Source: an uncultured Candidatus Saccharibacteria bacterium (GTDB lineage Bacteria; Patescibacteriota; Minisyncoccia; UBA6257; UBA11618). From it: 59,414 nt of DNA. The stretch's first letter is position 1, and every line of letters starts with the position of its first letter. The DNA lies in contig CAYICS010000005.1 in the NCBI GenBank assembly GCA_964362125.1, positions 1 to 59,414 of the forward strand, given 5' to 3'. Of this stretch, positions 7,611-37,539 are shown piece by piece. Under the pieces are notes generated by a model. The model saw nothing but the letters and a program-made list of their open reading frames with translations. It made no database searches and was not told the DNA's origin. Position numbers and translations under genes: made by a program.

Positions 7611-8465
7611 TCACCCAACCTGATCCAATGCCTCAGCCACAGTGCCAGCTCCATTGAGATTCCCTTTGATGGTCTTGATGGCAGAGCAGTGAATTTGGGA
7701 AACGCGCGACTTAGAGATATTAAGGATTTGCCCCACCTCGTTCATCGTCATCCCCCAAGCATAGTAGCCGATGATCACTTTTTTCCCAAGACTGGTCAGG
7801 CCAATCAAGAACCGCGGACTGATGCCTTCAGCGGCGATCAACCGCTCGAGCGGCGTCTGGTCATTACTGTATGAATAATCATTGAGAACTGGCTGGTGGT
7901 TGAAATGAAACCCTCGCCAATCACCATCTCTTCTCCAGCCAGTACTCTCCTGCACCAGCTGGGACTGCTGATTAACTGCTGTCTCGATCCTCCCAGCTTC
8001 CTCCGGAGAGATCTCCAGATGCTTCACCAACTCTTCCTGACTGGGCCGATGACCCAGTTTGTCAATCAACTCTTTGTAGCTGGTGATCCGCCGGTAAGCT
8101 GAGCGCGACTGCCACATTTGCGTCCGCAGATAGTCGATTATTGCTCCCCGGATCCGGTTGAAGGCATAGATATCGAAATCTGAGCCTTTGTCCGGATCAT
8201 AGCCATTGATCGCATCCATCAGGCCGAAGTTGGCAGCACTAACCAGATCATCGAGCTCGATTGGTTCTGGCAGATGTCGGCGAAAATAGCTCGCCATCCT
8301 TTCTACCCACCACTGGAAACCCAGAATCAGCTGGTTACGCAGTTCCAGACTGCCGGTTGCCCGATAGAGCCGGAAAAGGTTGCCTACCATGGGCTGATAG
8401 CCATGCAGGCGCAGTTGCCCCCTATCTCTGTTCCCTCCCTTTCCATTTTGTTCTCTTCTTCTCAT
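7611..8465 (-). CDS. FliA/WhiG-like (sigma-28 type) sigma-70 family factor
   Basis: ELDDLVSAANFGLMDAINGYDP, RIRGAIIDYLR, TMNEVGQILNISKSRVSQIH. Confidence 0.85.
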   Translation of the reverse strand: MRRREQNGKGGNRDRGQLRLHGYQPMVGNLFRLYRATGSLELRNQLILGFQWWVERMASYFRRHLPEPIELDDLVSAANFGLMDAINGYDPDKGSDFDIYAFNRIRGAIIDYLRTQMWQSRSAYRRITSYKELIDKLGHRPSQEELVKHLEISPEEAGRIETAVNQQSQLVQESTGWRRDGDWRGFHFNHQPVLNDYSYSNDQTPLERLIAAEGISPRFLIGLTSLGKKVIIGYYAWGMTMNEVGQILNISKSRVSQIHCSAIKTIKGNLNGAGTVAEALDQVG

Positions 8466-8549
8466 CCTTGCCTGACCTCCTCTCCTTAAAAGGTAGGACT
8501 AATTTCAATGTTCTGCCTTTATTATAGACAATGACAGGACAGGGTAAAA

Positions 8550-10136
8550 TCAGCTTGTGGATATCTTTTTGCCGGGGTTGAAGATATTTTTTGGATCAAA
8601 AATTTGCTTCACTTGGCGAAAGAGATCATAAATTTTCTCCCCAAACATCATCGGCAAAAACTTGGTGCGCAAGAGGCCGTCATTATGCTCGCCGCTGATT
8701 GATCCCTTAAATTCCAAAACCAGCTGATAGACTTTCAAGGCCAGTTCGTTAATCACCTGTTCAAAGTCCGGTTCCTGTGGATTCATCAAGGGAATAATAT
8801 GAAAGTTGGCGTCGCCGATATGGCCGGCGATGGTGTAGGTCATTTTATTTTCGTACTGTTTCAGGATCTGATTAAGCCGCGGCAGAAACTCCGGCAACTG
8901 ATCAGGATGCACCACAATGTCATCAATAAAGGGCGCGGTGCGCTTTCCAGCGATGCCCTTACGCAAGAGATTAAAACTCTCCCGCCGGACAGTTTGATAT
9001 TTCTCTGTTTCCGCCGCAGTCCGGGTAAGGCGGGTTTTCAAATTAAATTCTGCCAAGTCGGCTTGGGCCGCCCGCGCTTTTTCTTCAACCGCCTCTGCCG
9101 AATCGCCGCTGAATCCGGCTAGCAGTACCAGCTTGGGAATGCCGCCGGTCAAGACCATCCCTATCTCCGGCAAAAACTGCCAAGCGAATTTAAAAAACAA
9201 ATGATCAATCCCCAGCTTCAGCGTGTGGTCGTCAAAAGTCTCAAAAGTTTCCGGCTGGTGTTTTAAGACCCGGCCGATAATGTCAGCCAGCGGGCCCAGG
9301 TCTTTTAATAAAATCACCAAGAGTTGGGAATGGGCTTTGGGCCGGATCAGCCGGAATTTAATTTCGGTAATCAGGCCCAGTGTCCCCTGCGAGCCGACAA
9401 AAATTTTGGTCAGGTCAAATTTTTCGCCGTCCCAGACATTCCATAAATAATAGCCGGAAGAGTTTTTGGAGACGGTCGGCCGGGCTTGGTCTATCAACTC
9501 CCTGTTATTTTCTATCAATTGCCATAAATTTCTGTAAATTTCCCCTTCGTAATTCTGCTGGCCCATTTTAGCATCCAGTTCTTCTTTGGTCAGGGGTTTA
9601 ATCAGATACTCATTAGCGTCGCTCAATACTACTTTTAACTCCTCTACATATTTCTCGGTTTTGCCGTAAGTTAAACTCTTCTCGCCGCCGGAGTTGTTGG
9701 CCGCCATGCCGCCGACAGCGCAGATATCTTTAGAACCCGGATAGCTGGGCATTAGCCAACCCTTAGCCAGAGCGGCTTTTTCAAAATCGCGGTACCAGAC
9801 GCCGGGTTGGGTTATCGCATAACCCAATTCTGATCCTGTCGAAGGACCGACCTCTAGCACTCGATTAAAATAGCGGGTGAAATCCAAAATAATGCCGGTG
9901 TTGAGCGGGCCGCCGGTCATATCCGTTCCCCCAGCCCTCGCCGTCAAACTAATATTCGCTTCCTCCGAGGAAGCGAATTTGACCAAAGCTTTTATATCCT
10001 CCGTGTCTTTAGGAAAAACAACAAGTTGCGGCCGGACTTCAAACAAACTGGCGTCGCGGCTGTAAGCAGTTAAAGTCAACTGGTCATCAGCTATATCGCC
10101 TTTAAGCAACTGTTGAATTTCCTGAGGCAGATTCAC
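8550..10136 (-). CDS. FAD-linked oxidase (GlcD/D-lactate dehydrogenase family)
   Basis: RAGGTDMTG, GSQGTLG, GHIGDANFH, GEHNDG, FDPKNIFNPGK. Confidence 0.9.
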   Translation of the reverse strand: MNLPQEIQQLLKGDIADDQLTLTAYSRDASLFEVRPQLVVFPKDTEDIKALVKFASSEEANISLTARAGGTDMTGGPLNTGIILDFTRYFNRVLEVGPSTGSELGYAITQPGVWYRDFEKAALAKGWLMPSYPGSKDICAVGGMAANNSGGEKSLTYGKTEKYVEELKVVLSDANEYLIKPLTKEELDAKMGQQNYEGEIYRNLWQLIENNRELIDQARPTVSKNSSGYYLWNVWDGEKFDLTKIFVGSQGTLGLITEIKFRLIRPKAHSQLLVILLKDLGPLADIIGRVLKHQPETFETFDDHTLKLGIDHLFFKFAWQFLPEIGMVLTGGIPKLVLLAGFSGDSAEAVEEKARAAQADLAEFNLKTRLTRTAAETEKYQTVRRESFNLLRKGIAGKRTAPFIDDIVVHPDQLPEFLPRLNQILKQYENKMTYTIAGHIGDANFHIIPLMNPQEPDFEQVINELALKVYQLVLEFKGSISGEHNDGLLRTKFLPMMFGEKIYDLFRQVKQIFDPKNIFNPGKKISTS

Positions 10137-10152
10137 TGTCTAATTTTAACAT

Positions 10153-10206
10153 AAAAAAACCGGGCTAGGCCGCCAACATCTTCGAAGTTGTGGCGGCCTA
10201 GCCCGG
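10153..10206 (-). terminator. Intrinsic terminator after dcd
   Basis: CCGGGCTAGGCCGCC stem followed by a T-tract on the minus strand. Confidence 0.7.
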
Positions 10207-10211
10207 GAAAT

Positions 10212-11333
10212 TTAGACTGACTCGGGCATCCTGAACTGCCGGGCCAGCTGGGGCGGCCGGCGATCAGTGTGATCAATGGCGTAGCTGGCAGTGGCCAGCT
10301 GATCATACCATTGGTCAGGCCGCTCAACCATCCTTTCATACCAAACTCGAGCTGCTATCTGGCCGTCGTAGAAAGGCATGTCCTCGTTAACGGTAATCAC
10401 CTCGAGAACCAAGGGCCTTCCCCGGCCAGCGCCGTCCTTCCCCCAGCCCCAGCCCGGGTCAATGAAACCGGCTTCATGACTGATGAAGTCGCCGAAGCGC
10501 CGATCCATTGAAATCATCTCCAGCGCCAGCCACGGCGGCACTCGTACCCATTCTTTGGTCTGAAAGAGATAGTGGCCTTCCTTGCGCAGATGAACCCGAT
10601 CCCGGTCAATTCTCATCGGCCGGAAGAACTCAAGCGGGTTGTAGTGCTGGTTCTGGCCAAATTCCAAAACCCGATTCACTCCCAGACACTCCCAGCCGGC
10701 AACCTTAGCTCCCAAGTCCAATCTCAAATTAAGAGTGCCGTCGCGGTCCTTGTTCTGCAGTTCTTCATAGCTCAATGACCGATTGCCGTTCCCAAACAGC
10801 CGATCATGATCGAAGTAACGAATCAAATCATTGAGACTGAAACGGGTGTTGTGATTAAAAAAGCGGATTTGAGAGAACGACTGTCCCGGTTCAATCTTAA
10901 GAGGATAGGCCCGCGGCCTGAGAATCTGCCAAAGCCCCCCTTGATAGCCGGCTGGTTCGGCACTGTCGTAGCGATCAACGAAATCCGCCACCACTCGCGC
11001 CCGGACAAAATTCCGGCCGCTGGTAGACTTGGGGTTGCAGTAGCCATAGACATCGTTCTGCAAAGCCAGCGACTGGTTGAGACGAATCAGATAAGTCACT
11101 CCCCGCTCTAAGGGATAGGCCAGATCATGAGGACTGTGACCAATCTGCCGCAGGGTTTCCCGCACTGCTTCGTTACGGGGAGGCGGAAAACCCTCCTCTA
11201 AACGATAGGCCTCCTGACTGATAGTCAGATCGAAAGAGGCCGGAGAGATAATTACCTCCGGCGGAACACCGTTAATCTGTTTCCTCTCAATCATTTCTCT
11301 GATGGTCTGCATCGGCAGGGCGCCGTAACCCAT
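10212..11333 (-). CDS. dcd: dCTP deaminase (long two-domain DCD type)
   Basis: PASFDL, NPKSTSGR, SQIRF, HEAGFIDPGWG, PLVLEV. Confidence 0.8.
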   Translation of the reverse strand: MGYGALPMQTIREMIERKQINGVPPEVIISPASFDLTISQEAYRLEEGFPPPRNEAVRETLRQIGHSPHDLAYPLERGVTYLIRLNQSLALQNDVYGYCNPKSTSGRNFVRARVVADFVDRYDSAEPAGYQGGLWQILRPRAYPLKIEPGQSFSQIRFFNHNTRFSLNDLIRYFDHDRLFGNGNRSLSYEELQNKDRDGTLNLRLDLGAKVAGWECLGVNRVLEFGQNQHYNPLEFFRPMRIDRDRVHLRKEGHYLFQTKEWVRVPPWLALEMISMDRRFGDFISHEAGFIDPGWGWGKDGAGRGRPLVLEVITVNEDMPFYDGQIAARVWYERMVERPDQWYDQLATASYAIDHTDRRPPQLARQFRMPESV

Positions 11334-11440
11334 TTTTCATCCGTCCTTTCCTGAATTAGTTGTGATTCTGGCAATGTACCGGCTCTTATGATAAGCTAGG
11401 ACGGGATTATTTTCAACCCGTTCTTTGAAAGGACTAAAAA

Positions 11441-12088
11441 ATGACGCGCGGAAAACTGATTGTCATTGAAGGCATTGAATGCGCCGGCAAGGACACGCAA
11501 GTGTCAAATCTGGCTAAAGCACTGGAGGAACGAGGTAGAGATGTGATGGTAGTTCGGGAGCCGGGCGGAACAGCTATCGGCGAAAGTCTGCGGGCTATTT
11601 TGAAAGATCCAAGGCACCAAGGTGTCATCGCTCCGCTGACTTCACTGTTCTTGGTCAACGCCGCCCGACTGCAACTGATGCGCGAGCAGATACGCCCGGC
11701 CCTTGATCAAGGCCGGATCGTTTTATCCAACCGCTCTTATCTTTCAAGTTTGGCTTATCAAGGTTATGCCGAGGGCTTGTCACTGAAGCTGATACGGCAA
11801 ATTTGCACTGCGGCTCTGGACGATCTCTTGCCTGACCGCATCTTTCTCCTCGACATCACGATTGAGGAGATGCTGCGGCGGATGAAAAATCGCCCCGGAG
11901 CCGCAGCTGACCGCTACGACAGTCTGGATGCCTCTTTTCATCAGAAGGTGCGGGACGGCTATATCCAAGAAGCCATCCTTGATCCTCACTTGATCAAGAT
12001 AATTGACGGCCAACAGCTAGAGGAAAAGGTCACTGCTGACCTGATCGAACGAATTCAGCCATTACTTGATCAAGGAGACAAAGCATGA
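11441..12088 (+). CDS. tmk: Thymidylate kinase
   Basis: IEGIECAGKDTQ, REPGGT, RSYLSSLAYQG. Confidence 0.95.
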   Translation: MTRGKLIVIEGIECAGKDTQVSNLAKALEERGRDVMVVREPGGTAIGESLRAILKDPRHQGVIAPLTSLFLVNAARLQLMREQIRPALDQGRIVLSNRSYLSSLAYQGYAEGLSLKLIRQICTAALDDLLPDRIFLLDITIEEMLRRMKNRPGAAADRYDSLDASFHQKVRDGYIQEAILDPHLIKIIDGQQLEEKVTADLIERIQPLLDQGDKA

Positions 12089-13590
12089 GGCCAAGAGTCT
12101 ACGCCGTGATCAATGTGCCGCCCGAAATCAGCGCCTATGCCACGGTCCGCTACAGCCGGTCGCCTGACTCAATGAAAGATAGTATTGCCTGGATCTATCG
12201 GAAATCAGCCGAAGCAGCTGCCAGCGGCGCCGAGAAATTTCTCGACACCTACTACTTCAATTATGGCCACAAATCCATTGCCGATTGCGGCCATGTGATT
12301 ATGGCTATTGAGCGATGGTCGCAACTGATGGCTGAAGAAGTCGAGGACGAACAACTCTGGGACGGACAGGAGCAATCCACCCGTTATCAGGACTTCAGCC
12401 GGCCCAAGTTCTTCAAGCCGCGGGGTTGGCAAGAAGCAGAGCTGATGGAACTCTATGTGAAAACCATCCATCAGCTCTTTACCTCCTACCACCGGCTTTC
12501 CCAACAGGCCTTCCGCTATTACTGCTTTAAGAATCCCAAGCCAGACGAGATGAAACAGGGCGATTACGAGCGCGCCCTGCGCGCCCGGGCTTTTGATGTC
12601 GCCCGCTATCTTCTGCCGATGGCTGTCAAGACCAATGTCGGCCAAATCACCAGCATCCGGGTTTTGGAAAGGCAAATCCAGCGCCTGCTGGCCAGCCGTT
12701 ACCCCGAGATTCGATTGTTGGGTGAAACAATGGCGCGGGCCTGCAAAGAGCCGGCCTACGACGTGGCCAAGGCCCAATTCAAGCTGGAGGACGTTCTGCC
12801 GGCGGTAGAAGCGGCGCCGACTCTGGCCAAATACCTCGAGCCAGACACTTATCTCGAGAACACCCGAAAGAAACTGAAACAGTTGGTAGAAAAAATTCTC
12901 CGCCTGCCCCTCCCAATCCACAACTACAGCCGGGTGGAACTCCATCCTCCCGGGAGTCACGCTGGTTACTGCGAGGAAGTGGTGACGACAGCTATCTATT
13001 GGGTCACTAACTACTCCTATCAACAATGCCTTGATTTGGTCTCCAATATGAAAGAGGAAGATCAGGCCTTAATCTGGAATGCTCTTTTTGCCGAACGCGG
13101 CCAGCACGATGAATTGCTGCGGCTCTTCCGCGGCGGCTATCCCCTGACCTTTGACACTTGCGTTGACATCGGCGCTGACCGCGATCTCAAACGTCATCGC
13201 CGCTGTATCCAAATCCGTCAGGATCTGTCGGCTGACTATGGCTATGAGATTCCAGCCGTGCTGACTGAACCGGGATTGGAAGATGAACACGACCTCTATG
13301 TGAAAGCAGTCGAGGCCGCTCACCAAGCCTATCGCCAGCTGGCTATTGTCCATCCCTATGACGCCCTCTATGTCCTGCCTCTGGGGACGAGGCGGCGCCG
13401 GCTCTATAAGATGGATCCGGCTGAAGCGGTCTACATCAGCGAACTGCGCACGGGCGTGGGCGGCCACTTCTCTTACCGGGCGGCTGCCTACCAAATGTTT
13501 GAAAAGCTGGTAGAGTGGTGTCCGGAATTCAAAGAGTTCATTGCTCCCCGCGTCACTCATCCGTCAGTGGAGGCGCCGCTGAAACGGTAA
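12085..13590 (+). CDS. thyX: Flavin-dependent thymidylate synthase, tandem-domain form
   Basis: YGHKSIAD, EQSTRYQDF, DVARYLLP, DRDLKRHR, ELRT..GGH..YR. Confidence 0.85.
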   Translation: MRPRVYAVINVPPEISAYATVRYSRSPDSMKDSIAWIYRKSAEAAASGAEKFLDTYYFNYGHKSIADCGHVIMAIERWSQLMAEEVEDEQLWDGQEQSTRYQDFSRPKFFKPRGWQEAELMELYVKTIHQLFTSYHRLSQQAFRYYCFKNPKPDEMKQGDYERALRARAFDVARYLLPMAVKTNVGQITSIRVLERQIQRLLASRYPEIRLLGETMARACKEPAYDVAKAQFKLEDVLPAVEAAPTLAKYLEPDTYLENTRKKLKQLVEKILRLPLPIHNYSRVELHPPGSHAGYCEEVVTTAIYWVTNYSYQQCLDLVSNMKEEDQALIWNALFAERGQHDELLRLFRGGYPLTFDTCVDIGADRDLKRHRRCIQIRQDLSADYGYEIPAVLTEPGLEDEHDLYVKAVEAAHQAYRQLAIVHPYDALYVLPLGTRRRRLYKMDPAEAVYISELRTGVGGHFSYRAAAYQMFEKLVEWCPEFKEFIAPRVTHPSVEAPLKR

Positions 13591-13603: not shown

Positions 13604-13663
13604 TAATCTATTGGGGTTGGACCCCAATAGATTGGAGGCGGTCCGATGACATCGGACCGCCTC
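13604..13663. terminator. Two hairpins between convergent thyX and DUF763 genes
   Basis: AATCTATTGGGG/CCCCAATAGATT and GAGGCGGTCCGAT/ATCGGACCGCCTC. Confidence 0.65.
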
Positions 13664-14732: not shown

Positions 14733-14857
14733 AAAAAATACTTACCCTACCTATTCAGACTTGACAATTAAAAGTTTTCCACAGATGATTAGAATCTCAG
14801 TTAATGGCTGTTTTAGTACCTTGGAAAGGAGAGGTTTTTATAGAAAGAGAGGTGCCT

Positions 14858-15478
14858 ATGCGCCAGCGCAGAAGAAAACGACCGAAGGCCACTTTCGAAA
14901 AAGTACTCTCAAGAGACCATTGGGAAGTGGCCCGGGCGCTCGACCACAAATGCTTCTTTAATCCCGGTTGGTTGAGCAAGAGAGACTGGCAATGGTACGA
15001 GCCCCATCTGATTCTCCTGGAAGGAGCGGCTGTCGGCTTTGCCGCTTTAAGGCTCAACAGCAACCTGTCCCTTGAGCGAGACCGTTTCTTCCCTTCTCCC
15101 GGCACGATCTATTTTGGCCGGATCGGCATTGTGCCGCTTTTCCGGGGACAGGGCCTGGCTTCGCAGTTTCTCAAATGGCTGATTAACTGGAGTAGAGAGG
15201 GTCGTTACTCCCGAATCGCCTGCAATTGCGCAGTGAAAAATCACAGCAGCCGCGCCCTCCTGGAAAAGTTCCAGTTCAGAAACGTCGGGACTGTTGTCTG
15301 TCATCCACCAAAACCGACATCCAAGTCAGGCTTGGCGACAGCACCACCCCTGCACATCATTGTCTGGGAAAGACCACTGGCCGCAGTCACGATCCCGCTT
15401 ACCTCTGAAGCCGCAGAAACGAATCCTCGCACCCCTGAAGGTGTGGGAACGAGCCTACCCCAAGCCCTTTCGGGGTAG
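14858..15478 (+). CDS. GNAT family acetyltransferase
   Basis: IGIVPLFRGQGLAS, NHSSRALLEKFQF; SD GAGAGG before ATG 14858. Confidence 0.75.
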   Translation: MRQRRRKRPKATFEKVLSRDHWEVARALDHKCFFNPGWLSKRDWQWYEPHLILLEGAAVGFAALRLNSNLSLERDRFFPSPGTIYFGRIGIVPLFRGQGLASQFLKWLINWSREGRYSRIACNCAVKNHSSRALLEKFQFRNVGTVVCHPPKPTSKSGLATAPPLHIIVWERPLAAVTIPLTSEAAETNPRTPEGVGTSLPQALSG

Positions 15479-15544: not shown

Positions 15545-15928
15545 TCATCTGACTAACTTCAGTCGCCGCCGTTTCCTTCGCTGATCCATTTTTTCCTGAA
15601 CCCAGGGCGAGGGCGTCCAGTAATGATCAAAAGCAACAGCCTCGCCCAGAAGCCCAGCCAGAATTCTTATCAATTGGACCACCTCTTTGGGAAAAATACA
15701 GATTTGAGCGATGTTGTTCTCGCCAAAGTGAAACCAGCCGCGCAGTTTCAGTTTTCTTTGCCAGCGCCGGCGCTTCGGTGTCCTACTGCCAGTGACAGAC
15801 AGAGGGATGTAGATGAAGATGGGGTAAGTGTTTGGTTCCATCTCCATCATGGTCACATCTCTCGGCCGCGCCATATTGGCCACATCAATATCAATCCGCA
15901 AAGACGGCCTTCTGATTTTTATCGCCAC
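15545..15928 (-). CDS. Hypothetical basic protein
   Basis: 127 aa, SD AAAGGAG before GTG, own terminator at ~15497-15540. Confidence 0.55.
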   Translation of the reverse strand: MAIKIRRPSLRIDIDVANMARPRDVTMMEMEPNTYPIFIYIPLSVTGSRTPKRRRWQRKLKLRGWFHFGENNIAQICIFPKEVVQLIRILAGLLGEAVAFDHYWTPSPWVQEKMDQRRKRRRLKLVR

Positions 15929-27825: not shown

Positions 27826-27829
27826 TTTG

Positions 27830-28108
27830 TTATCTACTATCTATAAATGATCCTGCCATTGTTTCGGCGACATCAAATCCAATCTTAACAACATAAAAAA
27901 CTTTATCTGGATGACTTTGTCGGGCTAACTCTAACGCTTCAGCACTCGTACTGCCGAGATATGCGTCTTTACTATCAATATCAATAGCCAAAAACTTACC
28001 CTTCTCTTTGGAGTCATAATTAACCTTAATTTGGTCGTATATCTTCGCCCCCTCTTCTGCTATCCTCTGAATATCTGCTTTTTTAATTAATTCTTCGTTG
28101 TTATTCAT
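27830..28108 (-). CDS. DUF5678-like small protein
   Basis: GKFLAIDIDS...ALELARQSHPDKVFYVVKIG; lies directly upstream of the aspartic protease. Confidence 0.7.
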   Translation of the reverse strand: MNNNEELIKKADIQRIAEEGAKIYDQIKVNYDSKEKGKFLAIDIDSKDAYLGSTSAEALELARQSHPDKVFYVVKIGFDVAETMAGSFIDSR

Positions 28109-28238
28109 AGGTTTGAAAGGGTAAGGAATTATTAGTAATTACACTATAGCAACAATCTGCAGAGAATACAACAATGCACCCTACCCCGCTACTCACTATT
28201 GTTTGAAAACAAAAAACTCTTGCTTAGCGTACAAGTTA

Positions 28239-29627: not shown

Positions 29628-29957
29628 TGACTCTATTTTATCTTGTTCTAGCCAAAAGTCCTAGTTCTTACGCCAAGTTGGCCTTATGAATAAAATAAAA
29701 CCGCTCACTACGAGCGATTTTATTTTAGAATTTCGAGATTCGCTTGGCTATCTGTCCAACCGGGCTCCATACCCTGAACGAAATCCGAACGCATTTCCGC
29801 GAAAACCCCAACGCCGAATTCTAACCTAACCGCCTCGCTACGCTCGGCGGAACGTTCGGGCGCGGCGGAATCCTGCCTACCGGCAGGCAGGCCCCTTCCG
29901 CCGCGCCATCGCTTTTCGCGCCGACGGAATTTGTGCCAGTGTCAGCTGGCGTGCCGC

Positions 29958-31136
29958 CTACACCATTTCGCAATATAAGGATTCTTTTAAACCAAGGTTT
30001 CTTTTTCTTAAGTAATTTGTAAATTTATCTGAAAGAATACTGCCATGAAGTTGAGTTTGTTTTGTTATATATTTCAAAAATGACATATTTAATCCATTGA
30101 TTTCCGATCTATACTGAACATTTCCATTTTCCGATATCCTTAAAATATTTATGTCTAATAATTTGTGATGATTCTGGCAAAGCCAAAGACCATTCTCACC
30201 GTCCAGCGCACAAGCTAATTTTTCGTCTTGAGATAAAGTCCCGTCCTTTTTTATTTCAGACACAGGCCAGATGTGAGCACCATGAATAATTTGCGGTATC
30301 TCGCATCCACAAAAAGCACATTTCTTGTCGCCAAGTTTTTCCAAAAGATTATACACATATTCTATAGAGCGCAAACTATCATTTTCTTCAAAATCAATTT
30401 TTTCGATGGTTCTATCAGAGGTATATATTTCTACCTTGCCAAGTGATTCGATGGCCTCCCTAGCTTTTTCTGGTAATTCAGTTAGACCACCCTCACCAAT
30501 CTGAAACAACTGAATTTTAGAAGTAGTAATCTCTGATAAAGCCAAGCAAAGAATAGTTGTTTCGTACTTATTAGCACCATACGTCTTTCCAAAGATCTGT
30601 AATTCATTATTAGAACCTCTTGTAATATAGGTAGATTTATTACCTCTATTTTTACTCCGAATCTGCTCTTTGTTAACGATAATGTCTTCCACCGTTGTAA
30701 AAGGGTGAATCGGATGTTCTAAATATTCTCCCTCGTTTAAAAACCTTATTTTTGCTGTTTTCATCAGACGATACATGAATATGAAATAAGGGGTCTCATA
30801 GTTTCCAATAATTGATGGATGGAAATAAAAAGAGATCTCTTTATTTGGATTCTCTTCGAGAATATACCTAGCGAGTGCACTCGGGAAACTCTGAAAACTA
30901 GAGTTTCTACTTCTTATATCTATTTCCGAAATAGATATATAATTTTTCTTTCCCTGATATTCGAGTTCGACGAGTCTACCTATGTTATAACCAGTATCAT
31001 CAAAGTCATATGTATAATCTGAACGACCAGTGACTTTTAAACTAATATCAGCAAGTATTTCGGAGGTTAATAAATCACGATATGAAGTATCTTTCTTTTG
31101 AAACTTATTTTTAATTACAAAATGTGGTTTTGTCAT
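29958..31136 (-). CDS. HNH endonuclease, probable restriction enzyme
   Basis: CAFCG, GAHIWP, NGLWLCQNHHKLLD; adjacent to the methyltransferase. Confidence 0.8.
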   Translation of the reverse strand: MTKPHFVIKNKFQKKDTSYRDLLTSEILADISLKVTGRSDYTYDFDDTGYNIGRLVELEYQGKKNYISISEIDIRSRNSSFQSFPSALARYILEENPNKEISFYFHPSIIGNYETPYFIFMYRLMKTAKIRFLNEGEYLEHPIHPFTTVEDIIVNKEQIRSKNRGNKSTYITRGSNNELQIFGKTYGANKYETTILCLALSEITTSKIQLFQIGEGGLTELPEKAREAIESLGKVEIYTSDRTIEKIDFEENDSLRSIEYVYNLLEKLGDKKCAFCGCEIPQIIHGAHIWPVSEIKKDGTLSQDEKLACALDGENGLWLCQNHHKLLDINILRISENGNVQYRSEINGLNMSFLKYITKQTQLHGSILSDKFTNYLRKRNLGLKESLYCEMV

Positions 31137-31137
31137 A

Positions 31138-32988
31138 TTAACTATAATTCATTATAAGCACCTCATCTCTTTGGTTGCCATTTATTTTATCAATATTTAC
31201 CAAACGGTATTTATTTTGTCTAACCCAATTTTTAAACTCTATATTTGTTTTGCCATTGTGCTCAACAATATACGAAATCATAAAACGCATGGACTTTTGA
31301 TTTAATGAATCCGCAAATGCAAATAAATTCATTTCGTCAACAAGCCCCCATCCATTGAAACCCCGTTTGCCGTCATTGTATGATCCGTTTGTAAGGCGAT
31401 ATGGAGGGTCCATGTACACAAATGAACCTCCTTTTATTTTATCTAAAAAATACGTATATTCAAAGCTACTAAAAACAACATCTTTCTCTTTTATTGCTCT
31501 TGAAAAACTCATCTTTTTTTCAAGAACCTTATCATTAAACCACCTCATACCTACCGGATTGTTAAAATCGTGGTTACCATTAAATCTGATTTGCTGATTG
31601 AAGCCATACAGAATAATTGCATAAAGAAATCTCGGATCTCTTTTTTCGAACGGCAAGGAGTTATATTGATTTCTCGCCTTTAAATAACTTGTAGCATCTT
31701 CCACTTTAAGACCATATTTTTTAATGATTTTCTTAACGTAAAGAAGGTACTGGTACGTATCATGTATTCTAAATGACTCTACCAAGTTTTTAACAAAGTG
31801 ATTAATATCATTATAAATAATATGATTTGCATTGGAATTTATCCCGACGTTAAAACCACCACCAAAGATATCAATAAATGTATCAATATTTTTTGGTAAA
31901 TATTTTTGAATTTCCGATAATATTTTTGCCTTACTTCCAATATAGTTTAAGGGTGATTCGTAGTGGATGTCAGTAGGATTTTTTTTCTCAATAAAGAATA
32001 GATATTCGAAGTGATCTTTTTTCCCTCGTGATTTAAAATTTGTGTATTTATTGTAAGAAATTTTTCTACACTTATAAGTTTCTGGCTTGCCGTATCGTTT
32101 TAAGCTTGCTTCTATAAAACTTTTTGACATAAACCCATCGGCACTATAGCTAAAAACAATATATTTGGCCGTGGTTTTAGATATAACTTTATCAAATAAT
32201 ATATGTGCCTTGTACATCTTTGACCAGTCAGATCTCATCGGAGTGGTTAGTCTTGATCCGGTAATTTGGCTAACACTGGGATTATCGTCCAACACTAATG
32301 TTTCAAGTAAGTGATATTGTGTTCCGTATTGATTTTGAGTATATGGTGGGTCAAGATAAAGGACATCACAATCTATCTTATCTATAATATTTTCTATCTT
32401 ATCGTTATAACACCTAAGATTAAAATGTTTGGAATTCTTTGATTCAACCCTTTGGAAAATTATTGGTTTTTTTGAACGAGGATCCCAATGCTTCAAAAAT
32501 GCTCCATACACGCCTGCGGTATTGGAAATAAATGAAATGGATTCAATAAGGCTTGCTAATAAATACGAGTATTCCTTATCATTTATCAAACTATCATGCT
32601 TCCACTTTTCAATCGAGTCTCTAAAATAATCTATCCTACCCGCATTTTCGGGAGAAAAATACATTCTTTTAGAGCCACCTGGTGAGTAGTTTTTGTAAAA
32701 AAACCCTCTTTTAGTCTGATTGCTTGAATTCAAGAATTTGAAAGGATCAAACCCTAGTTTTTTAAATCTGCAATCACTCGTTGTTATCCTTCCTTTAGTA
32801 TAAACAACGCACCAGTTCAGCATGTCATTTACCACTAAATCGAAAGAATCTTTAAGTGAATTAGAGACTGCTCCGGTGCCACAAAATGCGTCAAATAATG
32901 TTAACCTTTTCTTACCCAAAAGCCCCTCTTTGTCTAAGAGGTCTTTTATTTCATTAACGAAAGGTTCTTTGTTTCCTATAAACCTCAT
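31138..32988 (-). CDS. Two-domain adenine DNA methyltransferase (M.FokI/M.StsI-like)
   Basis: Two motif I (FCGTG, FGGG) and two DPPY motifs. Confidence 0.9.
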   Translation of the reverse strand: MRFIGNKEPFVNEIKDLLDKEGLLGKKRLTLFDAFCGTGAVSNSLKDSFDLVVNDMLNWCVVYTKGRITTSDCRFKKLGFDPFKFLNSSNQTKRGFFYKNYSPGGSKRMYFSPENAGRIDYFRDSIEKWKHDSLINDKEYSYLLASLIESISFISNTAGVYGAFLKHWDPRSKKPIIFQRVESKNSKHFNLRCYNDKIENIIDKIDCDVLYLDPPYTQNQYGTQYHLLETLVLDDNPSVSQITGSRLTTPMRSDWSKMYKAHILFDKVISKTTAKYIVFSYSADGFMSKSFIEASLKRYGKPETYKCRKISYNKYTNFKSRGKKDHFEYLFFIEKKNPTDIHYESPLNYIGSKAKILSEIQKYLPKNIDTFIDIFGGGFNVGINSNANHIIYNDINHFVKNLVESFRIHDTYQYLLYVKKIIKKYGLKVEDATSYLKARNQYNSLPFEKRDPRFLYAIILYGFNQQIRFNGNHDFNNPVGMRWFNDKVLEKKMSFSRAIKEKDVVFSSFEYTYFLDKIKGGSFVYMDPPYRLTNGSYNDGKRGFNGWGLVDEMNLFAFADSLNQKSMRFMISYIVEHNGKTNIEFKNWVRQNKYRLVNIDKINGNQRDEVLIMNYS

Positions 32989-33010
32989 AAACTTTTATTT
33001 ATTCACGACG

Positions 33011-33967
33011 CTATCGAGAACGTAGTTTTTGCACCGGATCTTTAAATGCTTTATGTAATCGATTCGCAGCATCAATCATAAAATCATTCATCTTCGTCCA
33101 GTCGTCTTCATTAAAGACACTTACGCCGTCCAGTTGATATTTTACGCGGGATGTAACCCGGTCGTCCATACGCTCCCAAATGAGAGGCCCACCAAAATCT
33201 TTCTCGATTTGGTCTTTCAAGTTGTAAAAATAATCAAACACTTCTTTATTTTTTTGTATATCACCTTTGTTTATATATATTTCTGCACGAGCATAATTTT
33301 TTGAAACGACTAAATTCAAGCCGACACCCGAAGTACCTAATGCAATTCCAATCCATGCGTCTGTTCCGGGGCTTACATTTTGGCAAAGAGAATTTTTCTG
33401 ATTCATTGCTTCAATAAGTTGAGTCCAAAATTGTTTGCGTGTGGTATGTCTTTGTGCATACTCTTTCTTTTCTGCTCCAATTTTTTTTCGTTCTTGAGTC
33501 GGACCTTCTACAACCGTAAATAGCGGCGCTACTGATGTTTGGCCCTCTATTTTTATTCCTTCAATTTGGACTAGATAGAAACACATATTGTCGGGCGTAG
33601 TTTCGTTTAACCACTCAACGACCTGTTGGTGCTCCTCAGATGGGTTTGTAGTTATCCAAATTGCTATATTCGCATCAAGATTTACCAAATATGTAAGAAT
33701 TTGGCCGAGGTGTGTGTGATCAGATTTTTCCAGTTGGTTTTCAATTATAATTTTATTTCCGGAACTATCCTCACCATAAATATCGACGAAGTATGGTCCA
33801 ACATTACCCTCAACCGTTTGAACTGAAATATCGATGTTTAAAACATCACTAAGATAATCTATATTCTTGGCAAGCCAAGGTGTAAAATTTTTAGCCTCGT
33901 GTTTCCATATTTCACGAGGGTCAATTTTTTTAATCTTCCCAATAGGTTGTTGATTGTTATTTGTCAT
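33011..33967 (-). CDS. DUF4268 domain / NucS-like endonuclease-fold protein
   Basis: WKHEAKNFTPWL, IIENQLEKSDHTHLGQILTY, IEKDFGGPLIWE. Confidence 0.85.
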   Translation of the reverse strand: MTNNNQQPIGKIKKIDPREIWKHEAKNFTPWLAKNIDYLSDVLNIDISVQTVEGNVGPYFVDIYGEDSSGNKIIIENQLEKSDHTHLGQILTYLVNLDANIAIWITTNPSEEHQQVVEWLNETTPDNMCFYLVQIEGIKIEGQTSVAPLFTVVEGPTQERKKIGAEKKEYAQRHTTRKQFWTQLIEAMNQKNSLCQNVSPGTDAWIGIALGTSGVGLNLVVSKNYARAEIYINKGDIQKNKEVFDYFYNLKDQIEKDFGGPLIWERMDDRVTSRVKYQLDGVSVFNEDDWTKMNDFMIDAANRLHKAFKDPVQKLRSR

Positions 33968-33973
33968 ATGTTT

Positions 33974-34174
33974 TTATTTAAACAATTCCGCCACCGGCAC
34001 GCCGAGGGCTTTGGCTATTTTTTCTAATGTATCAACGGTTGGATTAGGGCTTTCGCCTGTTTCTATCTTCACAACCGTATTTAACGCCAAATCAGCGTCT
34101 TTAGAGAGACGATCTTGGGAGATTCCTTTTTTGATTCGCAATTTGCGGATATTTTCGCTTACTGTATTTGCCAT
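33974..34174 (-). CDS. XRE-family HTH regulator (possible R-M controller)
   Basis: IRKLRIKKGISQDRL, NPTVDTLEKIAKALGV. Confidence 0.9.
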   Translation of the reverse strand: MANTVSENIRKLRIKKGISQDRLSKDADLALNTVVKIETGESPNPTVDTLEKIAKALGVPVAELFK

Positions 34175-34469
34175 AATGTTTTGACTTTGATAAACTATTA
34201 TAATACACTACTTATAGTAAGCGTATATTAACTTGCTTAATACAATGGTATCAAAAATATTTAAATTTGTCAAACAAAAATGGAGTCCCTTATCGTTGCC
34301 CGCGCACTGGGAGGGCAAGAGCAGGATTTCAAAATATCGCCGCCAAAAAAACCTGCTACTGAATTGATTCAGTAGCAGGGTTTTAACGAGTATATTTACA
34401 TACCAGATTTAAGAGAGTTTGAATGGTTGAAACTGCCTGCGTTTAGCCCAGCGGCCGTAACAGCATAGC

Positions 34470-34991
34470 CTAAATCTCATATTCCCAATAAGGTTGCCAC
34501 CTAAAAGGAGTGCTTAACAACTCTTTCAAGGTTTTGCCCATAAGTGTATCAAGCCCATATTGAGTAGCTCTGTGTCCGACAATGAGAATACTTTTGTCGG
34601 GATATTTTTCTTTAAGTTCGGCATAAAATCCCCGAACCCGTGCTACCGCCTGCTCGTAACTCTCGCCGTTTGGAAACGGCTCTTTGATGTGTTGCATCTT
34701 CATCGGTTCAACAACAGCAGATGGCTTGCCATTAAAATCTCCGTAATTGAGTTCCCGTAATCGTTGGTCGGCGATGACTTGGTGTTTACCCTCAAAAGCA
34801 ATCTTTACCGTATCAACAGCTCTCTTTAAATCAGAGCAACAAATAATGTCTAATTTAATATCCTTAAATGTCTCTCCTAGTTCTTTTGCTTGCTTTATAC
34901 CTAAATCAGAAAGCTCTGTATCGTTCCAGCCCGAAGCGATTTTTGCCTCGTTGTCTTTAGTTGTTGCATGAGCCGCAAAATAAACCCTCAT
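34470..34991 (-). CDS. Histidine phosphatase family protein
   Basis: AHATT, SDLKRA, LRELNYG, PNGES, VGH. Confidence 0.85.
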   Translation of the reverse strand: MRVYFAAHATTKDNEAKIASGWNDTELSDLGIKQAKELGETFKDIKLDIICCSDLKRAVDTVKIAFEGKHQVIADQRLRELNYGDFNGKPSAVVEPMKMQHIKEPFPNGESYEQAVARVRGFYAELKEKYPDKSILIVGHRATQYGLDTLMGKTLKELLSTPFRWQPYWEYEI

Positions 34992-35003
34992 AGCTTAAAA
35001 GTT

Positions 35004-36020
35004 TTATTGAATCGCCAATACGATTTTTCCTGTTTGCTTACTTTCGGATAGCAGCTTTATTGCCCTACGGAAATCCTTTAAAGGAAAGGTTCTATCAATA
35101 GTTATCTTGAGCTTGTCCCTCTCAACAAGCTTGAGAACATCCTCAAACTCCTCTTTTGTTCCCATTCTTGAACCAAGAATCGTGTGCTGATAATAGTAAA
35201 TATCGCTTAGGTCTTGCGATGCTACTGCCCCACTGGTAGTCCCTGCGATTACGACTCTTCCATGCGGTCGGAGCATTGCAAGCGTAGTATTCCAGGTAGC
35301 ACGGCCAACACTTTCAAGAACCACATCCACTTTTTCTCCTTTTGTCAGCTCCCCGACAGATTTTACAACATTCTCTTTCTTGTAATTGACGGTGTGGTGT
35401 GCCCCCATTGCTTTTACTTTTTTAGCATCTACATCGGAGCTTGCGGCAACTATTATTTTTGCACCAATATGTTTTGCTATTTGAATTGCGGCTGAACCAA
35501 GACCACCTGAAGCGCCCCATATAAAGATGGTCTCTCCTTTTTGAAGCTTGGCTCGACCGACAAGCATATGGTAAGCAGTTAAAAATGTTAAGGGAAAGGC
35601 GGCGGCTTCGACAAATGACAGGTTCTTTGGTTTTGGGTAAATTTGTTCAACTGGAACGGTTACATATTCCGCAAATCCGCCAGAAGTTCTGTAACCAAAT
35701 ATAACAACAATCTCACAAGATAGACCCTTTTTGCATCGAGAACACTTTTTACACGGTATAGCTGGGTTAACTATGACTTCCTGCCCAATTTTAAGTTTGC
35801 TCGAAGCATTTATTTCTTCGATTATCCCCGAAACATCAGAACCAGATATATGAGGAAGTGGAATATCTAAAACCCCTTTCGTAAGATGCAAATCTAAGTG
35901 ATTCAGGGCACAAGCCTTAACTTTTATTAAAGCTTCGCCTTTCTTGGGTTTAGGTTTTGGAAGCTCACCGTATTTAATAATTCTTTTCTTACCCTCTGGG
36001 GCTATATAAATTGCTTTCAT
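35004..36020 (-). CDS. Zinc-binding alcohol dehydrogenase / quinone oxidoreductase
   Basis: ALNHLD, CKKCSRC..C, GASGGLG, GKIVL. Confidence 0.9.
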   Translation of the reverse strand: MKAIYIAPEGKKRIIKYGELPKPKPKKGEALIKVKACALNHLDLHLTKGVLDIPLPHISGSDVSGIIEEINASSKLKIGQEVIVNPAIPCKKCSRCKKGLSCEIVVIFGYRTSGGFAEYVTVPVEQIYPKPKNLSFVEAAAFPLTFLTAYHMLVGRAKLQKGETIFIWGASGGLGSAAIQIAKHIGAKIIVAASSDVDAKKVKAMGAHHTVNYKKENVVKSVGELTKGEKVDVVLESVGRATWNTTLAMLRPHGRVVIAGTTSGAVASQDLSDIYYYQHTILGSRMGTKEEFEDVLKLVERDKLKITIDRTFPLKDFRRAIKLLSESKQTGKIVLAIQ

Positions 36021-36276
36021 CGTTGATTTATAAATTCCGCATCAAAAAATGCAAGGAGTTTTTTCTTCCCGGCTCGACCGCCCCATGTGTTTAAAGATAT
36101 GAGTTTCATGCAATTTCGATTTTATCACCTTTCTCGATTTATTTTAAGATGCGACCATCGAAGATTCCTGAGCGAGGATGACTCGGTAGGAGGAAGCAAT
36201 GGCAAAATTTCAAAATATCGCCGCCAAAAAACCCGCTACTGAATCAATTCAGTAGCAGGTTTTTTTTATTTGCACT

Positions 36277-36381
36277 GGGCTTGCCGAAGTGGCTTGCCCT
36301 GAGCCTGTGGTTCGACCTTGCTCAGAGTTCGAATGAGGCTCACTCGAAGTCCCACCATGAGCTTGTCGAATGGTCGAAGGG
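36277..36381. repeat. Nested REP-like (TGAGC..GTCGAA) cluster abutting the tRNA 3' end
   Basis: Shares GAAGTGGCTTGCCCTGAGC with the 27408-27453 cluster. Confidence 0.7.
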
Positions 36382-36665
36382 CTCCGCAGGCTGGATTCGA
36401 ACCAGCGACCCACCGGTTACACTTAATCTACTATTACTAGTAGCGTGGACTATATCTTTCTCGTGGTCCGACAGGACTTTACGAGATCTCGGTATCTAGT
36501 CTCTACGGCGCCCCGCCACAACTTCTTTTGATGTTGGCAGGTTCCCACGGTATTACCCCGATGTAAAATCGGGGCTTCACCGTTATCCCGAGATTTTTCA
36601 ATTCGCCTTTCAGCGAAAAGCTGCGATTTTCACAGCCGGTTGCTCTACCGCTGAGCTACTGCGGA
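36382..36665 (-). tRNA. trnN: tRNA-Asn(GTT) split by a group I intron (exons 36665-36632 and 36419-36382)
   Basis: Acceptor TCCGCAG/CTGCGGA+G, D arm GCTC/GAGC, anticodon arm ACCGG-CTGT|TAA-CCGGT, T loop TTCGAAT; CCA not encoded. Confidence 0.9.
36420..36631 (-). ncRNA. 212-nt group I intron inside the anticodon (position 35/36)
   Basis: Exon ends in U, intron ends in G; P1 GCUGU/GCAGC; R-like CGTAGAGACTA and S-like AAGATATAGTCC. Confidence 0.9.
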
Positions 36666-36676
36666 ATCTAAGTCTA

Positions 36677-36919
36677 TTATATCAAAGATTTTATAAATTC
36701 TCTACCCGCCCCTGATTTTAAGAACTTTTCTCTTTCTCTAGCTCCTCTTCTATCTTGTGCTTCTTCCGAGTAAATCAAACTAAATGGCCCCCGACACTTT
36801 GTAGATGATGTCCCTATATGACCCCGGTCATGCTGTTTCAATCTCCTTTTTAGATTGTCTGTAATGCCTGTATAATTCTTTCCGTCGAGGAGGCTTTTTA
36901 TGACATAAACATAATACAT
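36677..36919 (-). CDS. Small GIY-YIG endonuclease
   Basis: YYVYVI, YTGITDNLKRRLKQH, AREREKFLKSGAGR. Confidence 0.9.
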   Translation of the reverse strand: MYYVYVIKSLLDGKNYTGITDNLKRRLKQHDRGHIGTSSTKCRGPFSLIYSEEAQDRRGAREREKFLKSGAGREFIKSLI

Positions 36920-36925
36920 AAATTC

Positions 36926-36980
36926 ACAGCCGGTTGCCCTGCCTGCCGGCAGGCAGGTCTACCCGCTGAGCTACTGCGGA
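36926..36980 (-). pseudogene. Duplicated 5' half of tRNA-Asn with a 20-bp palindrome insertion
   Basis: Copy of 36632-36665 plus CCTGCCTGCCGGCAGGCAGG at 36938-36957. Confidence 0.85.
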
Positions 36981-37032
36981 ATCTGAAAAAATAATACCAG
37001 CTAGAAACTAGAAAATCAATCGGGGGACTTAA

Positions 37033-37100
37033 CCCCCACACCTAGTCAGTATTGCCCTGCGGGCATAAATAGCGACTAGCTTACTGACTAGGTGTGGGGG
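37033..37100. mobile_element. 68-bp MITE-like CCCCCACACCTA...TAGGTGTGGGGG element (also 58655-58722; 28-bp forms at ~37200 and 55432)
   Basis: Terminal inverted repeats and a shared internal TGCCC..GGCA hairpin. Confidence 0.75.
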
Positions 37101-37296
37101 TTGACAAGCATGCTATAATGTAAATACGAGATGAAAGGCAGCCGGCGTCGGGCTGTTTTTTGGTCTCCGCAACAGCCGAGTCAGACCGCCCCTATTTTAC
37201 CCCCACACCTATGCATAGGTGTGGGGGTACACTTTTTCCTATTTATAATTTATAATAAGGCCGGCACCCATTACCCATGAAAGAAGGAGTAAAACT

Positions 37297-37539
37297 GTGA
37301 TCTTCATCCCCAAGCGATTCGGTTCTTTGGAAAAAAAGTTGCTGAAGCTTCTTTTGGTGAAAAATGTCTCTGGATCAAGAGAAGAATTGAGCCGAATGCT
37401 TAACCAGAACACTTCTCTTTACAGTAGAACTGTCGTTAATCGTCTCCTCTCTTTTGGCATACTGACAAAAGATGAAGCCGGCCTGATCGCCTTGTCTCAA
37501 AGGGCAAAGACTATTCTTGATCGCCCAACTCGGAGTTGA
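37297..37539 (+). CDS. Hypothetical winged-helix-like protein
   Basis: SD AAGGAG before GTG; SREELSRML...VVNRLLSFGIL; terminator follows. Confidence 0.55.
   Translation: MIFIPKRFGSLEKKLLKLLLVKNVSGSREELSRMLNQNTSLYSRTVVNRLLSFGILTKDEAGLIALSQRAKTILDRPTRS

Follow-up and report, generated by a model that had tools for sequence, protein, structure and literature searches.

A subgroup of the Parcubacteria has been described that lacks the anti-Shine-Dalgarno (anti-SD) motif in its 16S rRNA and mostly also lacks uL1 (Tsurumaki, Saito, Tomita, and Kanai 2022, RNA 28:1041, PMC9297842), and the genome considered here matches this subgroup in both respects. The window, which is the whole stretch of DNA that was analyzed, has a length of 59,414 nucleotides and is one entire 59.4-kb contig (CAYICS010000005.1 of assembly GCA_964362125.1) of an uncultured Candidatus Saccharibacteria bacterium, named G000 in the following (618 kb in 24 contigs, 96.9% complete, GC content 46%, standard code). 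Between positions 7611 and 37539 it harbors genes that are led by a canonical Shine-Dalgarno (SD) sequence in a genome with a 16S rRNA that ends without an anti-SD. These SD-led genes are probably horizontally acquired, self-contained cassettes that carry the format of their donors.

The Tsurumaki subgroup and G000 agree in a 16S 3' end without CCUCC(U) and in that uL1 was not found, and SD helices are presumed not to form. The residual class of accessory or foreign genes with canonical SDs is added here and is not mentioned in the main text of that paper, its supplements aside. The “group C” genomes of GeneMarkS-2 combine frequent leaderless transcription with genes that start behind a ribosome-binding site (RBS; Lomsadze et al. 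2018, PMC6028130). The likeness to G000 consists of a Pribnow box about 6 to 8 nt before many first-gene starts plus a second, leadered population of the SD type; however, group C genomes possess a resident anti-SD, and their native internal and leadered genes use the RBS, whereas none of 261 native core genes in G000 has an SD, which is confined to foreign genes. Phage morons are independent transcription units spread by horizontal gene transfer (PMC3594210). Like morons, the SD-led units consist of one or a few genes, bring their own promoter and terminator, and show a deviant composition, a position between resident genes, and a patchy distribution, but they are located outside recognizable prophages, are scattered over all contigs, and do not include structural or lysis proteins. 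The Bacteroidia, finally, have SD-blind ribosomes and a few retained SDs such as that of rpsU (McNutt et al. 2023, PMC9976891). Most genes without an SD and a small minority with a strong one are common to both cases. In the Bacteroidia, however, the anti-SD is kept but sequestered and the SD of rpsU is a conserved native regulatory device, whereas in G000 the anti-SD is gone, rpsU has no SD, and the SD-led genes are non-conserved, probable imports. Full-text literature searches returned no paper on SD-led or leaderless genes in bacteria of the candidate phyla radiation (CPR) without an anti-SD other than Tsurumaki 2022, the supplements of which were not included. Anti-SD loss and the leaderless mode are thus known already; no account of a small SD-led class that almost exclusively marks acquired cassettes was found in this literature.

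The genes of G000 were called from open reading frames (ORFs) with a dicodon model, which yielded 672 genes with the first ATG taken as the start, and a gene was scored as SD-led if AGGAG or GGAGG began between positions −17 and −9. This was the case for 44 of the 672 genes, compared to a chance expectation of 11.3 derived from internal ATGs and 12.2 derived from intergenic non-start ATGs (binomial p 6e-14). With pseudo-starts shifted by 30 nt as a third control, the chance level was between 8 and 12 genes, so that roughly 30 of the 44 exceed chance. Chance as the source of the class was excluded by such control counts for G000 and for the relative G018 introduced below. The number of 44 is a lower bound because the ATG-first rule overlooked the ORF starting at position 15928, which has a GTG start behind AAAGGAG.

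The position of the AGGAG motif peaked at −13, −12, and −11 with 7, 16, and 10 of 663 genes, respectively, over about 0.7 genes per position elsewhere. The consensus was aAAGGAGG, frequently AGGAGGT(G), and the spacer between GGAG and the start was 6 to 9 nt with a mode of 7 in 39 of the 44 genes. Consensus and spacing are those of a textbook SD, more than a mere GGA. Strong sites (−8 kcal/mol or stronger) preceded 43 of 668 genes compared to 12 to 28 in four control windows; weak sites (−4.5 kcal/mol or stronger) were not more common than in the control windows.

The remaining genes start differently. An upstream gap of 40 nt or more was present in 374 genes, and in these the 5' end of TAnAAT peaked at −12, −13, and −14 (23, 14, and 10 genes), which is the position expected if transcription begins at the A of the ATG. 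A TATAAT-like box (at least five of six bases matching) was present between −20 and −9 in 78 of 336 non-SD leader genes and in none of the 38 SD-led genes with such a gap; in 20 of these 38 it was located between −60 and −41 instead, usually together with a TTGACA-like −35 motif. The native genes are SD-free and often leaderless.

Two relatives without an anti-SD served for comparison, G004 from the same family as G000 (623 kb, 10 contigs, 99% complete, 16S tail GGATCATTTAAT) and G018 from another family of the same order (746 kb, 3 contigs, 98% complete, tail GGATCAATTAAAC). Core genes, defined as those with orthologues in both other genomes, had an SD in 0 of 261 cases in G000 and in 2 of 260 and 1 of 256 cases in the relatives, so that SDs persisting on vertically inherited orthologues were not seen. 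The core genes were depleted of SD-like sequence in every energy bin. The accessory leader genes were bimodal in SD energy, with the intermediate bins at chance level. Raw counts of the word AGGAGG were 603 in G004 and 251 in G000 and were dominated by coding words, which made an order-wide census of the pattern unusable.

In the window, the native format is represented by one block:
38425-59101: native core contrast block without SD sites, with dsbA, nrdBA, ftsZ, ftsA, rpsU, hisS, lepB, pth, pil genes, and a response regulator.
Several of these genes have a TATAAT-like box 6 to 10 nt before the ATG, for example pilB with gtgttataataagattATG. The statement of an earlier note on this DNA, made from the sequence alone, that ftsZ, ftsA, rpsU, hisS, nrdB, bcp, dsbA, pilB, and the pilin gene have no SD was borne out, with all sites weaker than −4.5 kcal/mol.

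That note had also described the 16S rRNA as lacking an anti-SD, and this was confirmed from the fragment at the end of the window:
59349-59414, minus strand: 3' end of the 16S rRNA, last 66 nt, cut by the contig end (RF00177 model positions 1468-1533, 43.3 bits, E value 3e-11).
The tail reads GGAUCAUUUAACUA, compared to GGAUcACCUCCUUu at the same place of the RF00177 model; past helix 45, GGAUCA-UUUAACUA stands opposite GGAUcA-CCUCCUUu of the model. CCTCC is absent from the 250 nt between the 16S end and the next gene, which encodes the response regulator. No tRNA and no complete rRNA were detected in the window, and an RF00177 search of G000 gave nothing besides the 66-nt fragment. Among G000 and 60 relatives from the same order, 37 of the 61 genomes had a 16S match, and none of the 24 loci with a readable 3' tail contained CCTCC. 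Since these 24 tails come from 19 families, the anti-SD was lost long ago, across the whole order. Tails were not recovered for the family of G213 (0 of 2) and for G144, G431, G458, G204, G114, G398, and G049. uL1 (PF00687) was not found in G000, G004, or G018 and was present in 14 of 14 control genomes. The replacement of the anti-SD is itself conserved throughout the order as a tail similar to GGAxCA-AUUAAAC. A replacement SD complementary to this new tail was considered and rejected: the region between −20 and −1 of core genes did not pair with it better than control regions, tails of other genomes, or shuffled sequences, and the mean duplex energies with the genome's own tail in G000 were −1.64 for core genes versus −1.70 and −1.69 for the controls. 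TTAAA was enriched at −8/−7, inseparably from −10 boxes and stop codons.

The SD-led genes of the window and the elements surrounding them, together with three genes that have weaker sites, are as follows. Gene identities (sigma factor, dcd, tmk, thyX, GNAT, bcp, CsrA, methyltransferase, DsbA, NrdAB, FtsZ/A, HisS, and pilus genes) are from Pfam.
7459-8548, minus strand: sigma-factor cassette (promoter and terminator scans, Pfam).
8548-8521, minus strand: promoter-like TTTACC-16-TATAAT of the sigma cassette (promoter scan).
8503-8513, minus strand: start of the sigma leader, near AGAACATTG (upstream sequence).
8475-8487, minus strand: SD of the sigma gene, AAGGAGAGGAGGT (upstream sequence).
7611-8465, minus strand: sigma coding sequence (CDS), 284 aa, with sigma-70 regions 2, 3, and 4 (Pfam).
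7488-7459, minus strand: terminator hairpin of the sigma cassette (terminator scan).
11370-11379, minus strand: dcd leader word GTACATTGCC (upstream sequence).
10212-11333, minus strand: dcd, dCTP deaminase-like (Pfam), weak SD-like AAAGGA, no orthologue in G004 or G018.
11441-12088, plus strand: tmk (Pfam), weak AAAGGA site, orthologue in one of G004 and G018.
12085-13590, plus strand: thyX (Pfam), AAGGAG at −13 within the terminal part of tmk, no orthologue in either relative.
13635-13663, plus strand: terminator after thyX, 13-bp stem (terminator scan).
14813-14834, plus strand: word AGTACCTTGGAAAGGAGAGG upstream of the GNAT gene (sequence).
14858-15478, plus strand: GNAT acetyltransferase, likely start ATG 14858 preceded by agagaggtgcct (in the long ORF, the Pfam domain begins at residue 59).
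15545-15928, minus strand: hypothetical ORF with a GTG start behind aaaggagcagggct, no Pfam family.
15538-15505, minus strand: terminator of this ORF, 15-bp stem (terminator scan).
17724-18026, minus strand: hypothetical 100-aa ORF with GGGGAAGGAG before the ATG (duplex −9.8 kcal/mol), no orthologues in G004 or G018, no Pfam family (scanned as the longer ORF 17724-18035).
22182-23400, minus strand: three-gene cassette for a methyltransferase, a small protein, and csrA, no orthologues in G004 or G018.
23400-23372, minus strand: promoter TTGACA-17-TATCAT of the three-gene cassette (promoter scan).
22752-23330, minus strand: methyltransferase, site TAGGAGA (Pfam, SD list).
22486-22755, minus strand: small 89-aa protein, site GAAGGAGGG, no Pfam family, called a helix-turn-helix (HTH) protein in the earlier note.
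22238-22456, minus strand: CsrA, site TAAGGAG (Pfam, E value 1e-19).
22207-22182, minus strand: terminator of the three-gene cassette (terminator scan).
37297-37539, plus strand: hypothetical 80-aa ORF with a GTG start behind gaaagaaggagtaaaact, no Pfam family, no orthologues in G004 or G018.

The SD-like sites listed in the earlier note were found as strong SDs before the sigma gene, thyX, the 18026 and 37297 ORFs, all three genes of the methyltransferase-HTH-csrA unit, and the 15928 ORF, where the site aaaggagcagggctGTG belongs to the GTG start. Those of dcd and tmk are present but of the weak AAGGA type, and the GNAT gene has GAGGTG before ATG 14858. The GNAT gene is without orthologues in G004 and G018 and scored 0.01 per codon in the dicodon model.

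An SD-led unit is composed of its own sigma-70-type promoter, a leader of 20 to 50 nt, the SD, the ORF, and an intrinsic terminator, and the self-contained build with longer leaders and terminators that had been noticed in the window holds across the genome. The median upstream gap in G000 was 145 nt for SD-led genes versus 55 nt for the others (p 3e-5), and a terminator (hairpin plus T-run) followed 21 of 44 versus 74 of 624 genes (48% versus 12%, p 3e-8). The corresponding portions were 72% versus 14% in G004 and 58% versus 24% in G018, with all p values below 1e-6. The terminators behind the sigma gene, thyX, the 15928 ORF, and csrA have stems of 10 to 15 bp.

The composition of the SD-led genes in G000 is foreign. 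Their GC content was 0.524 versus 0.465 in the other genes (p 1e-12), GC at third codon positions was 0.57 versus 0.50, and the dicodon fit per codon was 0.16 versus 0.29 (p 1e-7), with dicodon scores of 0.11 versus 0.26 in G004 and 0.12 versus 0.32 in G018. Among 37 SD-led genes outside the window, 27 had no Pfam family, and the Pfam-assigned remainder are accessory enzymes (radical SAM, DHODH, SDR, GNAT, M16 peptidase, cupin, and C92 amidase). The SD-led genes lie dispersed among core genes across all contigs with only weak clustering, 5 adjacent pairs versus 2.7 expected. A prophage origin was rejected, with no PHROG match for 31 of the 44 genes and no structural or lysis proteins in this search, as was descent from a single paralogous family, with zero paralogue pairs between SD-led genes.

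Orthologues were assigned by reciprocal best matches, and at the family and order distances concerned only about half of all genes obtain one. Seen from G000, 1 of 44 SD-led genes had an orthologue in G004 and 1 of 44 in G018; among the 628 other genes, orthologues were present for 297 and 303, respectively (Fisher p 1e-10 and 4e-11). From G004, 2 and 3 of 18 SD-led genes had an orthologue in one or the other of the two remaining genomes versus 298 and 315 of 585 others, and from G018, 2 and 1 of 57 versus 303 and 315 of 743. The sets of SD-led genes were completely different between these related genomes. G018 repeats the whole pattern of G000: 57 of 800 genes were SD-led compared to 12 to 15 expected (p 1e-17), with a GC content of 0.560 versus 0.473 (p 2e-21) and the dicodon difference given above. 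G004 is marginal; its 18 SD-led genes are orthologue-poor nevertheless, with the high terminator portion already mentioned. In the window, nearly all genes between 7.6 and 37.5 kb are without orthologues in G004 and G018, and between 38.4 and 59 kb most have one: 23 of the 31 genes called in the contrast block have an orthologue in at least one of the two relatives, 21 of them in both.

Three SD-led families were followed through the phylum and all were rare, with 2 to 7 carriers among 400 genomes. Among 100 other genomes of the order, 2 contained a homologue of the sigma factor, and among 400 of the phylum 3 did. The gene is SD-led in G049, G018, and G320; the two other phylum matches, in G114 and G398, have longer ORFs for which the start is ambiguous. 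The only reciprocal best match of the G000 sigma factor is an SD-led gene of G018 (contig C2, 76621-77415), and the sigma factor is absent from G074, a congener of G049. The hypothetical protein C8_7980 has a family in 7 of 400 phylum genomes, including G021 and G043 of the order without an anti-SD. All six homologues with the start inside the fetched locus have an SD-like site, which is strict AGGAG or GGAGG in five and the weaker AAAGGGGTG in G458; in G424 the ORF is open at the edge of the locus so that its start is not identifiable. Among metagenome homologues, 15 of 17 have a strong SD versus 5 of 44 neighboring genes of at least 150 aa, three of these five in one locus. That scan was based on a three-sequence alignment, and since an SD decided which start was taken at a locus, the chance rate is about 10 to 15% per locus. 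The third family, C2_2866, occurs in 2 of 400 phylum genomes and is SD-led in both. A subfamily of C8_7980 (L202, L203, L204, L208, L209, L214, L217, and L178) shares a 5' untranslated region of about 50 nt that begins with the hairpin-like GUCUCCCAGAGGGAC and continues with an A-rich stretch and AAAAGGAGGAAAGUG, with AAGGGGG instead of AAGGAGG in L208.

Some carriers of these families belong to lineages in which the 16S tail is canonical. In family f68, to which G458 and G320 belong, all 5 of the 16S tails that were recovered contain GGATCACCTCCTTTCT, and G264 has the same. G458 contains the nearest homologue of C8_7980 (44% identity), G320 the nearest phylum-level homologue of the sigma factor (31%), and G264 is a carrier of C2_2866. 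The decay of a cassette can be read from the sequences in one case: in the congeners G043 and G112, a cassette of the C8_7980 family is syntenic, with flanks about 80% and CDSs 66% identical, and the G112 copy contains a premature stop; promoter, leader, and SD are still recognizable in both copies.

The leaders of SD-led genes in G000 tend to share a further element. Behind a −10 box (TA...T) and 6 nt follows AG[AT][AT]C[CT], for instance AGTTCT, AGAACC, or AGTACC, in the window at 8503-8513, 11370-11379, 11420-11430, and 14813-14826. It was also seen on the G000 contigs C1, C3, C7, C8, and C14 and in G018. In G000, 15 of 38 strict SD leaders versus 13 of 336 others contain the motif, a circular comparison since the motif was first spotted there. 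In G018, the numbers were 8 of 47 versus 27 of 438 (p 0.013) or, with weak four-base SDs included, 22 of 87 versus 29 of 398 (p 7e-6); no enrichment was found in G004. An unbiased 5-mer scan ranked AGAAC and GTTCT at the top. Some occurrences are arranged as repeats, inverted or direct, AGTTCTgaatAGAACA being an example, and AGTTCTG is present three times in one leader. That the motif is shared suggests one source pool or one regulator for these leaders, and it may represent a promoter style of the donors, an operator, or a sequence element at the RNA 5' end.

Four of these places had been reported in the earlier note as boxA-like words. BoxA acts in the leaders of long or rRNA operons; the words found here sit at the predicted transcription start of single-gene units, unlike the site of action of boxA. 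As originally defined, G[AT][AT]C[ACT]TTG occurs 207 times in the genome and in 1 of 38 strict SD leaders versus 6 of 336 others in G000, which is hardly an enrichment. The broadened GWWCNTTG, pooled over the three genomes and with weak SDs included, gave 13 of 211 versus 9 of 1,080 (p 5e-6). The four words exist at their positions and are better described as instances of the start motif AG[AT][AT]C[CT].

The interpretation considered most probable is that of acquired cassettes. A mobile pool of accessory genes would circulate also in SD-reading lineages, including Patescibacteria with a canonical 16S tail, and from there its cassettes would enter a lineage with genes of its own that start leaderless or without an SD. 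Because the resident lineage has lost its anti-SD and its own genes are leaderless or SD-free, the SD on a cassette would be a mark of the donor format that the resident 16S tail is unable to pair with. The SD would then be functionally silent in the resident cell, and any translation would presumably rely on the A-rich, unstructured leader. Recent horizontal gene transfer, which had been proposed as one of several alternatives, is supported by the lack of orthologues, the foreign composition, and the homologues in CCUCC-bearing Patescibacteria. We infer the direction and the recency of the transfer, the latter without a date since the nearest homologues are only 31 to 44% identical.

Several observations weigh against this interpretation. 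No donor was identified, and a protein search of genome contigs with the sigma factor returned only a match of 27% identity. In a protein atlas, the sigma factor lies near FliA/WhiG clusters of the Planctomycetota, Actinomycetota, and Bacillota, and a hypothetical protein near clusters of the Minisyncoccota; these look-alikes are leads only. An SD frequency above background was found in G000 and G018 but not in G004, where 18 of 603 genes were SD-led versus 12 to 17 expected and the GC content showed no difference. Unrelated SD-led genes share the start motif, which would not be expected if they had been transferred independently and from diverse donors. A tail of half-decayed SDs is missing; the strong ones are intact, and 15 of the 17 diverged C8_7980 homologues keep theirs in SD-poor surroundings, so that the SD could be maintained by selection. 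The missing decay tail is weak evidence because the pairing energy is largely lost upon one mutation in the GGAG core. The genes of the ftsA/ftsZ region are without an SD even in G458, although its family has the anti-SD. Finally, the methods were home-made, with ORF and dicodon calls and the first-ATG rule.

The strongest alternative, although improbable, is that the SD sites work without an anti-SD: a protein or another RNA would read AAGGAGG, or leadered accessory mRNAs, frequently beginning with 5'-AG(U/A)(U/A)C(U/C), would be under selection for the purine site in some other role, and the accessory FliA-like sigma factor may take part. The intact, bimodal strong sites would be explained, as would the SDs of the C8_7980 family in the metagenomes and in G021 and G043, the SD-led sigma gene in all three genomes that have it and lack the anti-SD, and the motif exactly at the predicted transcription start and enriched in G000 and G018. 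Both genomes combine the accessory FliA/WhiG-like sigma factor with a large SD class and the start motif, and G004 has none of the three, a lead only with three genomes. On the other hand, there is no candidate for a reader. A scan of G000, G004, and G018 for a cryptic anti-SD RNA (CACCTCC, ACCTCCT, CCTCCTT, and GATCACCTCC) returned only antisense of SDs, coding matches, and 23S rRNA, thus no cryptic CCUCC-bearing 16S-like tail in the three genomes. The core genes are essentially free of SDs, SD-led genes never had vertically inherited orthologues in the compared genomes, and in the congeneric pair with a syntenic cassette one copy is a pseudogene. Some carriers have a canonical anti-SD, and the ordinary function of the SD in them suffices to explain its retention in these families; the missing decay tail counts for little for the reason just given. 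A somewhat less probable extension would be a Patescibacteria-wide mobilome with a stereotyped format of sigma-70-type promoter, 5'-AG(U/A)(U/A)C(U/C), AAGGAGG, 7-nt spacer, AUG, and terminator that stays intact even where the anti-SD is missing because it is read by a factor other than the 16S tail. If true, accessory genes would be initiated or controlled by a second route that depends on the SD but not on an anti-SD, and the accessory FliA-like sigma factor that co-occurs with a large SD class may be connected with it.

It is very doubtful that the GGA sites mark a CsrA regulon instead of ribosome binding, an alternative also raised in the earlier note. G000 has two CsrA proteins, that of the window (22238-22456) and a paralogue on contig C3, and the sites contain GGA and overlap the place of ribosome binding. 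As a general explanation this was rejected, since G018 has 57 SD-led genes without a CsrA homologue (E value 1e-5) and G004 only one weak match. The consensus, moreover, reaches AAGGAGG(T), which complements the canonical anti-SD in full, the spacer is 6 to 9 nt, and gene families carry the sites along into genomes of other classes.

The central proposal of the earlier note had been that these genes are formatted for another ribosome, for example in the host of this presumed episymbiont, which they would reach if mRNA or DNA were transferred. The sites are perfectly complementary to the canonical anti-SD that is missing from the resident ribosome, the units are self-contained, and some of the cargo is regulatory or concerns nucleotide metabolism (sigma factor, CsrA, GNAT, dcd-tmk-thyX). 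Nothing in the data calls for this proposal, however, which appears most unlikely and holds true only in the sense of a format of SD-reading donors. The SD-led genes encode mostly hypothetical proteins and no phage hallmark proteins, as the Pfam and PHROG results above indicate, the complete turnover of the set between relatives fits acquired genes and not a conserved set of effectors, homologous cassettes exist in lineages with their own anti-SD, and one copy is decaying. No export signal or delivery system was linked to the cassettes, although no systematic search for these was made.

Just as improbable is an unassembled second 16S copy with a canonical CCUCC tail: the 16S rRNA of G000 is indeed unassembled beyond 66 nt and rRNA genes are often missing from such assemblies, but full-length 16S matches in relatives are single-copy except in G056 and G020, all 24 tails are without CCUCC, G018 and G004 have no 16S-like GATCACCTCC tail elsewhere, and core genes without an SD would be odd in the presence of an SD-reading ribosome.

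If the SD-led genes are acquired cassettes, the loss of the anti-SD turns a canonical SD at canonical spacing into a label of imported DNA almost gene by gene, because native genes have none. This would provide a simple, composition-independent measure of gene flux into the ultra-small CPR genomes. The label also separates two kinds of imports. The accessory genes come in two formats that differ in GC content, with 0.52 to 0.56 for SD-led genes in G000 and G018 and 0.42 to 0.47 for those with a leaderless-type box, which suggests two donor pools, one outside the clade without an anti-SD and one inside. The question raised is how well SD-formatted foreign mRNAs are translated without pairing, and whether this forms a barrier that speeds up the loss of acquired genes. 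For annotation, a dual start model is needed since the ATG-first rule and single-motif rules both mis-set starts, as in the case of the 15928 ORF.

The window also has two low-GC blocks (GC 0.32 to 0.42) at 18143-22132 and 27457-37000, both without orthologues in the two relatives, which are a second, different kind of accessory DNA. One of them contains a restriction-modification-like set with an HNH gene (29958-31136), a Dam-type methyltransferase (31138-32988), and DUF4268 (33011-33967), and the blocks include in addition a GIY-YIG gene and an HTH gene. None of these genes is SD-led, and several have leaderless-type boxes.

At the three-gene cassette, a contig of run X1 with 4.2-fold coverage joins position 22754 to 23360 with 33 other letters and skips exactly the methyltransferase ORF, thereby placing an AAAGGAG-type site before the following gene. 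It was aligned at a minimum likeness of 80 and may represent a population variant without the methyltransferase or another organism. Beside the SD-led cassettes, a HicA toxin gene with a UPF0150/HicB-like partner (6745-7164) and an ORF for a MazE-like antitoxin (23586-23768) are located in the variable region.

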